Source of the DNA: an uncultured Gemmatimonadaceae bacterium
GTDB lineage: Bacteria; Gemmatimonadota; Gemmatimonadetes; Gemmatimonadales; GWC2-71-9
Direction of reading: 5' to 3'
NCBI GenBank assembly: GCA_964642475.1
Contig: CAZXRC010000004.1
Span: forward strand, 4,604 to 68,603
DNA: 64,000 nt
Below the pieces are notes generated by a model. It worked only from the letters and a program-made list of their open reading frames with translations. It was not told the origin of the DNA and made no database searches. A program made the position numbers and the translations under genes. Numbering within the stretch: the stretch's first letter is position 1; each line of letters opens with the position of its first letter. Below, piece after piece: positions 7,953 through 8,114 of this stretch.

Positions 7953-7990
7953 ACAAGAAAAGGCCCGGTTCACGTCGGGTGAACCGGGCC
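7953..7990 (-). terminator. intrinsic terminator/attenuator hairpin in the metY leader
   Basis: Minus strand reads GGCCCGGTTCAC-CCGAC-GTGAACCGGGCC followed by TTTTCTTGT. It lies about 45 nt upstream of the metY start. Confidence 0.7.
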
Positions 7991-8021
7991 TGGGCTTCGT
8001 CGAACGGTCTGGGCGGTTACA

Positions 8022-8114
8022 TCAGTGCGCCGGACCGGGACGTGCGCTGGCACAGTCCACCCCGCGGGGGGTGCACTTGCGCAGACAGCGACACATCATC
8101 GGGCAGCGCTTCAT
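8022..8114 (-). promoter_or_regulatory. candidate 30-codon Cys/Met-rich leader peptide (uORF) upstream of metY
   Basis: ATG at 8114 preceded by GAGGGA 11 nt upstream. Encodes MKRCPMMCRCLRKCTPRGVDCASARPGPAH (5 Cys, 3 Met). The stop lies about 30 nt before the terminator at 7953-7990. Confidence 0.3.

Follow-up and report, generated by a model that had tools for sequence, protein, structure and literature searches.

A candidate Met/Cys leader-peptide attenuator behind a SAM-II-like module in the metY leader of an uncultured Gemmatimonadaceae bacterium

Methionine biosynthesis is controlled by S-adenosylmethionine (SAM) riboswitches, T-boxes and repressors, and we know of no classical leader-peptide attenuation in this pathway. 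The subject of this work is the leader of metY, the first gene of a metY-ask-metX operon in an uncultured Gemmatimonadaceae bacterium (assembly GCA_964642475.1). The leader lies in a stretch of 64,000 nucleotides (nt) of contig CAZXRC010000004.1 (positions 4,604 to 68,603), referred to below as the window, and coordinates are those of the window unless given otherwise. An earlier note on this DNA had drawn attention to a 30-codon upstream open reading frame (uORF) followed by an intrinsic terminator, here called T2, and had proposed a ribosome-mediated attenuator that senses Cys and Met. This proposal is supported by conservation of the uORF across lineages, by the lack of an Rfam match and by a predicted antiterminator that depends on a ribosome at codons 6–14. 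We consider it likely that the uORF–T2 stretch works by classical leader-peptide attenuation in response to Cys, and probably also to Met, and that it stands behind a SAM-II-type switch. The leader as a whole most likely comprises two transcription-termination switches in series, a SAM-II-like module followed by uORF–T2. What is new relative to the textbook mechanism is the Met/Cys specificity and the tandem arrangement with a SAM-II-like switch.

The general model for such a device is provided by the classical attenuators of Proteobacteria (trpL, hisL, leuL, thrL, pheL and ilvL; Trp, His, Leu and Thr leaders in Rfam). The metY leader shares with them a short ORF rich in codons for the amino acids of the pathway, a hairpin 1:2 with the regulatory codons in segment 1 and an intrinsic terminator (3:4) before the first gene; an antiterminator pairing 2:3, mutually exclusive with the other two, is proposed. 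It differs from them in that both Cys and Met would be sensed, the codons are interspersed (MMCRCxxxC) rather than arranged in a run, the element is positioned behind a riboswitch-like module and the host belongs to the Gemmatimonadota. No sequence relation to any Rfam leader family was detected in an Rfam scan, and our literature search turned up no description of an attenuator that combines a Met/Cys leader peptide with a terminator, either before metY or for methionine biosynthesis genes.

Cys-rich leader peptides have been described or predicted in other contexts. The leaderless poly-Cys small ORFs (sORFs) of Mycobacterium smegmatis, the ‘Cys ribulon’ of Canestrari et al. (10.1101/834739), act by unmasking the ribosome-binding site (RBS). 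The earlier note had cited mycobacterial poly-Cys uORFs as a precedent, which is apt for Cys-rich ORFs ahead of sulfur genes but not for the mechanism, which there involves RBS sequestration and no intrinsic terminator (10.1101/834739). Common to both cases are a Cys-stalled ribosome that relieves (here, would relieve) repression by RNA structure and the presence of several loci per genome. In contrast to the mycobacterial sORFs, the metY leader has a strong intrinsic terminator before metY, a metY Shine–Dalgarno (SD) sequence that is not sequestered, a uORF that is not leaderless and has no Cys run, and Met codons as well. Relatives in two genera (g95 and g21) and a second uORF of the same genome, all discussed below, are leaderless-like as in mycobacteria, some of them with Cys runs. 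Cys-rich leader peptides have also been predicted in Actinobacteria, without terminators (PMC1262725). The uORFC-8-2 motif before cysS in Rhodobacterales, which Brewer et al. (2021, PMC8632094) predicted to be an attenuator and which has a terminator and two Cys codons, resembles the metY leader in having Cys codons in the first stem followed by an intrinsic terminator. It differs in its tandem Cys codons (14–15), its control of a cysteinyl-tRNA synthetase, its restriction to alpha-proteobacteria and its lack of Met codons and of an upstream riboswitch, and the two elements have neither sequence nor gene context in common.

For the upstream module the closest described elements are the SAM-II riboswitches (RF00521, SAM_alpha; RF01726, SAM-II long loop). 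The similarities extend to a P1 hairpin, a U-rich L1 loop (GAUUU), a YUUGC element, an AAACAA..GCUAAAG tail, a downstream methionine gene and a terminator that follows. The module departs from SAM-II in two ways: an extra, covarying hairpin of 14–26 nt separates the P1 3′ strand from the A-rich linker, and the post-P1 joint is 2 nt longer. The arrangement in series also has a counterpart, since tandem combinations of a SAM-I riboswitch and a Met T-box occur on methionine-related genes; the survey describing them makes no mention of leader peptides or uORFs (Sherlock et al. 2022, PMC9481103). The logic proposed for the metY leader is that of these tandems: SAM turns expression off at one element, and a second element in series with it monitors how far tRNA-Met is charged. 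In the described tandems the second element is a T-box, to which uncharged tRNA binds, whereas in the metY leader it would be a ribosome on the leader peptide, which would read Cys too.

The uORF and its proposed regulatory codons are located as follows.

8022–8114, minus strand: leader-peptide uORF of 30 codons plus stop (ATG 8114–8112, TGA 8024–8022), encoding MKRCPMMCRCLRKCTPRGVDCASARPGPAH
8099–8094, minus strand: M6–M7, proposed regulatory codons
8093–8091, minus strand: C8, proposed regulatory codon
8087–8085, minus strand: C10, proposed regulatory codon
8075–8073, minus strand: C14, proposed regulatory codon

Five Cys codons (4, 8, 10, 14 and 21) and three Met codons (1, 6 and 7) are found among the 30, and the ORF, with the Cys codons 4, 8, 10 and 14 and the three Met codons, is as the earlier note had described it. 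The GAGGGA that it reported upstream of the ATG is present at 8131–8126, 11 nt 5′ of the start codon, a long spacing for a SD sequence. The uORF begins ~145 nt past the predicted transcription start and is therefore not leaderless. Between the GAGGGA box and the uORF start we observed the sequence GAACGTTTC (8119–8127, minus strand), which in many relatives is a perfect 10-bp palindrome, GAAACGTTTC; instead of contributing to a ribosome-binding site, it could serve as an operator for a protein.

The earlier note had allowed that a 30-codon ORF could arise by chance in such GC-rich DNA. The whole genome (4.17 Mb, 69% GC) was scanned for small ORFs that contain four or more Cys codons and have a terminator behind them, with the reversed genome as control. 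This criterion had been relaxed from a stricter scan for Cys-codon runs, which missed the metY uORF. Three matches were obtained in the real genome and none in the reversed one. The metY uORF is among the three; the others are a leaderless ORF encoding MISRRARTCTCCCPSTTGRAGTRT and one match that is probably spurious. Together with an intact frame in all 30 related leaders (see below), this result indicates that the Cys/Met uORF is more than a chance occurrence.

The predicted RNA structures that surround and follow the regulatory codons are these.

7952–7991, minus strand: terminator T2 (segments 3:4), from the terminator scan; 13-bp stem at 7991–7961 with loop CCGAC, then UUUUCUUGU
8039–8097, minus strand: hairpin 1:2; 5′ arm in codons 6–16 with the Met/Cys codons, 3′ arm in codons 17–25, apex CACCCC/GGGGUG at 8073–8058
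8049–8062, minus strand: segment 2, 5′ strand of the proposed antiterminator, GGGUGGACUGUGCC in codons 18–22; partner at 7990–7977

T2 begins 30 nt past the uORF stop and is followed directly by the U-tract TTTTCTTGT (7960–7952), the end of which lies 45 nt before the metY ATG (7906). Both distances are as the earlier note had given them, but the stem has 13 bp and not 12. The predicted energy of T2 is −25.8 kcal/mol. Pairs were counted over 25 leaders from seven genera, and for T2 96.6% of the cells in this count are paired, with compensatory changes across genera at four pairs. T2 and its loop are near-invariant; terminator loops are normally free to vary. The uORF itself folds in the RNAalifold consensus as a long hairpin, codons 3–16 with codons 17–29. 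This hairpin, 1:2, has a predicted energy of −36.9 kcal/mol and 78% of cells paired. Its covariation score is above those of all 500 shuffles, and its apex covaries in other genera.

The earlier note had found no convincing antiterminator pairing by eye. A predicted alternative does exist: GGGUGGACUG.GCC at 8062–8049 can pair with GGC.CGGUUCACCC at 7990–7977, which comprises the 5′ arm and loop of T2, and in our simulation (below) it is released only by a ribosome on codons 6–14. The 2:3 duplex has a predicted energy of −24.5 kcal/mol, and of all upstream 17-mers it is segment 2 that gives the best duplex with the T2 5′ arm. In the same set of leaders 91.9% of cells are paired, compared with at most 52% when the pairing is slid. 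RNA folding, one of the checks that the earlier note had suggested, thus yields alternative terminator and antiterminator structures, at the level of prediction.

Ribosome movement was simulated by folding the transcript with the polymerase at the T2 loop and 30 nt masked by the ribosome. Only A-site positions at codons 6–14 (M M C R C L R K C) gave the antiterminator as the minimum-free-energy fold; with the A site at codon 15 or beyond, or without a ribosome, it does not form in the simulation. In computational terms, the simulated geometry matches what classical attenuation needs. The 2:3 geometry recurs in 12 independent leaders, although masked folding in these other lineages is only weakly discriminating, and there the free terminator 5′ arm often pairs upstream even without a ribosome.

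Within the genus, the leader from promoter to metY is 76–90% identical in 33 of 36 genomes, and 30 same-genus (Gemmatimonadales) leaders were examined. In all 30 the uORF is open, with a length of 30–33 codons and a peptide consensus of M[KT]RCPxMCRCxC[KM]CTPRGVDC. Eight codons vary only synonymously (R3, P5, C10, C12, P16, C21, A24 and G27); for example, Pro5 is encoded by CCG, CCC or CCA and Gly27 by GGT, GGA or GGG. Codons 6 and 11 are hypervariable. Synonymous single-base codon differences number 842 in the uORF frame, compared with 600 and 88 in the other two frames. A 3-nt deletion in leader L013 is in frame, and leaders L021 and L022, in which the ATG is replaced by ACG, have an in-frame GTG one codon upstream. 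Codons 18–20 and 22 (GGG GUG GAC .. GCC) are invariant in all 30 leaders even at synonymous sites, indicating a constraint at the RNA level on top of the coding constraint.

A covariance model built on the uORF–T2 stretch (R1) identified full-length homologues before metY in five further genera of the family. Their peptides retain the Met/Cys cluster and little else (MKSGLMCCRIMCMC..., MNARLMCCCIPC..., MKRICMCAQMCIC...), a pattern repeated in MKSGLMCCRIMCMCSPRERW..., MSARSPMCCRIMCMC..., MNARLMCCCIPCSARPQGW..., MKRICMCAQMCICHS... and MLPQLRGCCRMFACRPC.... The R1 search of the bacterium's own genome found no second copy of the attenuator, the remaining match being the reverse strand of T2. Frame statistics over 14 lineage representatives show a 56:35:11 distribution of TGY trinucleotides by frame (p = 6e-6). 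In metY-linked uORFs internal ATG triplets are in frame 35 times and out of frame twice, and Cys and Met each account for ~10–12% of codons. Three uORFs without metY linkage have no internal in-frame Met codons; Met enrichment therefore tracks metY linkage. In genus g95 (L056 and L058) the metY leader lacks the SAM-II-like aptamer and its terminator, T1, and the uORF begins ~7 nt after the −10 element of a TTGACA-N18-TAGCGT promoter, giving it a leaderless appearance. The occurrence of uORF–T2 without an aptamer in g95 indicates that the module is autonomous, and the absence of aptamer and T1 there implies that the two modules were combined or separated during evolution of the family.

The upstream module consists of the following elements.

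8191–8259, minus strand: SAM-II-like aptamer with a possible pseudoknot; P1 GGCGG 8258–8254 with CCGCC 8231–8227, GAUUU in L1, CUUGC 8238–8234
8225–8212, minus strand: inserted hairpin GAGGC-GAAA-GCCUC of the aptamer, which covaries
8201–8195, minus strand: GCUAAAG of the aptamer tail AAACAAAGA-GCUAAAG
8149–8182, minus strand: terminator T1, predicted expression platform of the aptamer, from the terminator scan; 9-bp stem ACCCCCGCG/CGCGGGGGU at 8182–8157, then UUUGUAUUU

The earlier note had recognized no SAM riboswitch in the leader. This is correct for uORF–T2: an Rfam scan of positions 7000–9500 on both strands returned no family for that stretch, and its Bp2_287 and mir-128 matches cover only the T2 hairpin. 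It does not hold for the leader as a whole, where the SAM-II-like aptamer with its own terminator occupies 8259–8149, upstream of the stretch that the note described. With this module upstream of uORF–T2 the leader carries two devices in series, neither of which replaces the other.

The upstream module looks like a SAM-II variant, although its Rfam scores are below threshold for both RF01726 (18.8 bits; threshold 44) and RF00521 (14.5 bits; threshold 36), and its homologues in other genera likewise fall below E = 1. The conserved SAM-II blocks (the GAUUU of L1, a UUGC that precedes the P1 3′ strand, and an AAACAA..GCUAAAG tail) are all present, are invariant across 6 genera, and align to the RF00521 consensus and to two copies in the same genome that do pass the RF00521 threshold (41.1 and 42.8 bits; threshold 36). 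Because the metY element shares all of these blocks with the bona fide copies and differs by the inserted hairpin, we read it as a SAM-II variant. As such it would bear on where the aptamer tolerates insertions and on the reason that it escapes covariance models. No variation in P1 is seen across genera. A possible pseudoknot pairs CUUGC (8238–8234) with GC..AAG of GCUAAAG; all of its positions are invariant, so that no covariation signal is possible. Within the genus, RNAalifold proposed a closing helix CGGC:GCCG with a shifted P1 register, GG-A-YGG:CCGCC; this was rejected because L057 and L075 cannot form the shifted register and GGCGG:CCGCC is perfect in all leaders. T1 shows compensatory changes across genera, and its position matches that of the terminators that follow the canonical SAM-II copies. 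A candidate T1 antiterminator, identified by eye across genera, pairs the tail sequence AG(A/C)GCC with GCGCU/GCUC in T1.

The two threshold-passing copies lie outside the window and have one terminator each; one precedes a Cys_Met_Meta_PP (Cys/Met pyridoxal-phosphate) enzyme and the other precedes metH.

G000:C4:96496-96555 (L043:1985-2060), minus strand, outside the window: SAM-II copy 1
G000:C3:75817-75875 (L044:2007-2080), minus strand, outside the window: SAM-II copy 2

Between the SAM-II terminator and metH (L044:1880-1990, minus strand) are GGCC-N3 heptamer arrays, ggccattggccgttggccgttgg ... ggccaacggccaacggccaacggcc, of a repeat family that the earlier note had recorded elsewhere in the window. 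Matches of the RF01726 type are found at E ≤ 1 in 70 of 151 Gemmatimonadota genomes, 2 of them above threshold, and our literature search found no paper on SAM-II in this phylum.

The proposed mechanism takes the uORF to be translated, the 2:3 pairing to form and the aptamer to bind SAM. In the first switch (8259–8149) the SAM-II-type aptamer and T1 would probably stop transcription when SAM is abundant. In the second (8114–7952) the 30-codon ORF would be translated as RNA polymerase approaches T2. Codons 6–16, which carry M6, M7, C8, C10 and C14 (and C12 in most relatives), would pair with the 3′ half of the uORF. When charged tRNA-Cys and tRNA-Met are plentiful, the ribosome would reach the stop codon, hairpin 1:2 would re-form behind it, T2 would form and transcription would end 45 nt before metY. 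When the charged tRNAs are scarce, the ribosome would stall at codons 6–14 and occupy the 5′ arm, leaving the 3′ arm free to pair with the 5′ arm and loop of T2; formation of this antiterminator would allow the polymerase to read through into metY. Expression of metY would thus require both low SAM and poor charging of Met- and Cys-tRNAs.

Several observations weigh against this mechanism. The 2:3 pairing shows no compensatory double changes among the 25 leaders, only one-sided ones, and two relatives, L053 and L055, each disrupt single pairs. The loop that the antiterminator would enclose measures ~58 nt, and T2 is slightly the more stable of the two structures. Strong nucleotide conservation in codons 17–22, reflecting constraint on the RNA, inflates the apparent conservation of the peptide, and 1-nt indels in L011 and in clade L024-28 alter the C-terminal frame of the uORF. 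The GAGGGA box, at 11–13 nt from the uORF ATG, is not conserved in other genera. Finally, Met codons are few in this genus (M7 is conserved; M6, M11 and M13 vary), and the Met input is therefore expected to be weaker here than in other lineages.

The same data can be read in another way, in which 8259–7952 is a single riboswitch, with T2 and the long hairpin as parts of an expression platform that serves either the SAM-II-like aptamer or another, unknown one, and the ORF is incidental, kept open by structure in GC-rich RNA. The invariance of synonymous sites around codons 17–22 does point to selection on RNA structure, short open frames are common in a genome of 69% GC, and a SAM-II-like element does sit upstream. 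We nevertheless regard a single riboswitch as improbable. Genus g95 has uORF–T2 directly after a promoter with no aptamer, the canonical SAM-II copies of this genome have a single terminator at the T1 position, and no Rfam family matches uORF–T2. The signs of coding also stand against it: ATG and TGY are strongly biased to one frame across independent lineages, the start codon is either kept or replaced in frame by GTG (L021/L022), and one deletion is in frame.

It is similarly doubtful that Cys and Met are sensed mainly through translation-dependent Rho termination, mRNA stability or translational coupling, with T2 as a constitutive partial terminator and no switch between 2:3 and 3:4. The lack of compensatory covariation in the antiterminator speaks for this reading, and both the mycobacterial poly-Cys sORFs (10.1101/834739) and the candidate Cys leader peptides of Actinobacteria (PMC1262725) operate or are predicted without terminators. 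However, the near-invariance of T2 and its loop is unlike that of usual terminator loops, the segment that pairs best with the T2 5′ arm sits precisely downstream of the Met/Cys cluster, in a geometry that recurs among the independent leaders, and the metY SD is outside any conserved structure. A function of the uORF product as a Cys-rich micropeptide (e.g. metal- or redox-active) that is co-expressed with metY and senses nothing is very unlikely: the peptide is well conserved in the genus, including its CxC-rich core and TPRGVDCASAR, yet in other genera it retains just the Met/Cys cluster and the structural GGGUGG (Gly-Trp), C-terminal halves are frameshifted in L011 and L024-28 with the element retained, a strong terminator separates the ORF from metY, and ORFs of other phyla are unrelated in sequence but still Met/Cys-rich with a terminator 55–65 nt downstream.

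Leader-peptide attenuation by Met and Cys, as proposed for this leader, may extend well beyond the family. Among 80 metY loci from many phyla, 16, belonging to about six phyla, have a Met+Cys-rich small ORF upstream, compared with 0 of 80 in the reverse-complement control, and most of the 16 have a terminator 55–65 nt past the stop. Those from other phyla (L086, L088-L094, L104, L115, L122 and L145), several of them leaderless-looking, come from Acidobacteriota, Chloroflexota, Ignavibacteriota, a ‘delta proteobacterium’ metagenome-assembled genome (MAG) and Eisenbacteria. Their peptides alternate Met and Cys: MAMCMCMACGPVR... (Acidobacteriota), VSMMMCGMCMSS.., MCMTMAMCMCTQ.., VSMMMCGMCM..., MCLSCMMMCSS.. 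and MCMTMAMCMC.... The conservation before metY that the earlier note had asked about is thus seen in the genus, in other genera and in other phyla.

Other poly-Cys uORFs are found in this genome and in genus g21.

G000:C1:249409-249483 (L155:210-284), plus strand, outside the window: second poly-Cys uORF of this genome, the leaderless-looking MISRRARTCTCCCPSTTGRAGTRT ORF of the genome scan
L059:1501-1664, minus strand: pure poly-Cys uORF of g21, MQLQARRVCCCCCRR..., directly after a promoter, with a T2-like terminator
L066:1495-1644, plus strand: pure poly-Cys uORF of g21, MAILSCFQCCCPSGG..., directly after a promoter, with a T2-like terminator

The first of these follows a TTGAC-N17-TATTGT promoter and precedes a strong terminator, GGCCCCGGC..GCCGGGGCC with a U-run; the gene downstream belongs to the beta-carbonic-anhydrase family (Pfam Pro_CA), and the uORF may be a Cys-responsive attenuator of a COS/CS2-hydrolase-like enzyme. 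The genes behind the g21 uORFs encode a Porin_O_P anion porin and an SBP_bac_11 (sulfate/thiosulfate-type) binding protein. Poly-Cys uORFs with terminators before a binding protein, a porin and a carbonic-anhydrase-like gene fit with Cys sensing by this design in the lineage.

On balance we lean towards a broader view in which the metY leader belongs to a widespread, undescribed class of Met+Cys attenuators on metY in at least six phyla (Gemmatimonadota, Acidobacteriota, Chloroflexota, Ignavibacteriota, the ‘delta-proteobacterial’ MAG and Eisenbacteria). In Gemmatimonadales it would be fused behind a variant SAM-II as a two-input gate for SAM and tRNA-Met/tRNA-Cys, and the poly-Cys uORFs before sulfate-uptake genes would be further members of the same, wider Cys regulon read by ribosomes. 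If so, the known attenuators would gain an amino-acid specificity that they have lacked, in the form of a Met/Cys sensor read by the ribosome before metY and recurring in soil phyla that resist culture. The leader would also show, in nature, a riboswitch coupled in series to a leader peptide, so that both tRNA charging and the level of a cofactor are read by a single leader. The combination of a Met/Cys-rich small ORF and a terminator ~60 nt past its stop could serve as an annotation signature for sulfur-amino-acid regulons in MAGs.

The regulated gene and the candidate promoter flank the leader.

6578–7919, minus strand: metY, from Pfam and NCBIfam matches; SD GAGGAG 7919–7914, ATG 7906
8265–8293, minus strand: candidate leader promoter; −35 TTGACT 8293–8288, 17-nt spacer, −10 TAGGTT 8270–8265

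A scan of the leader for the Escherichia coli consensus called no promoter, and the candidate given here comes from conservation: CTTGAC is invariant, and a −10 element of the TAnnnT type at a spacing of 17–18 nt is kept, in all 30 related leaders. The metY SD lies outside every conserved helix of the RNAalifold consensus. Between T2 and this SD is a box, CCGTTGACC (7922–7930, minus strand), that is near-invariant in the 30 same-genus leaders and absent from other genera, and for which we found neither a pairing partner nor a function. The assignment of metY as an O-acetylhomoserine/O-acetylserine sulfhydrylase rests on matches to Pfam Cys_Met_Meta_PP and the NCBIfam OAH/OAS sulfhydrylase family. 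It is followed by an aspartokinase-like gene and metX, in agreement with the earlier description of metY as the first gene of a sulfur amino-acid operon. The closest named relatives of MetY are from Gemmatimonadales MAGs, with 84–85% amino-acid identity.

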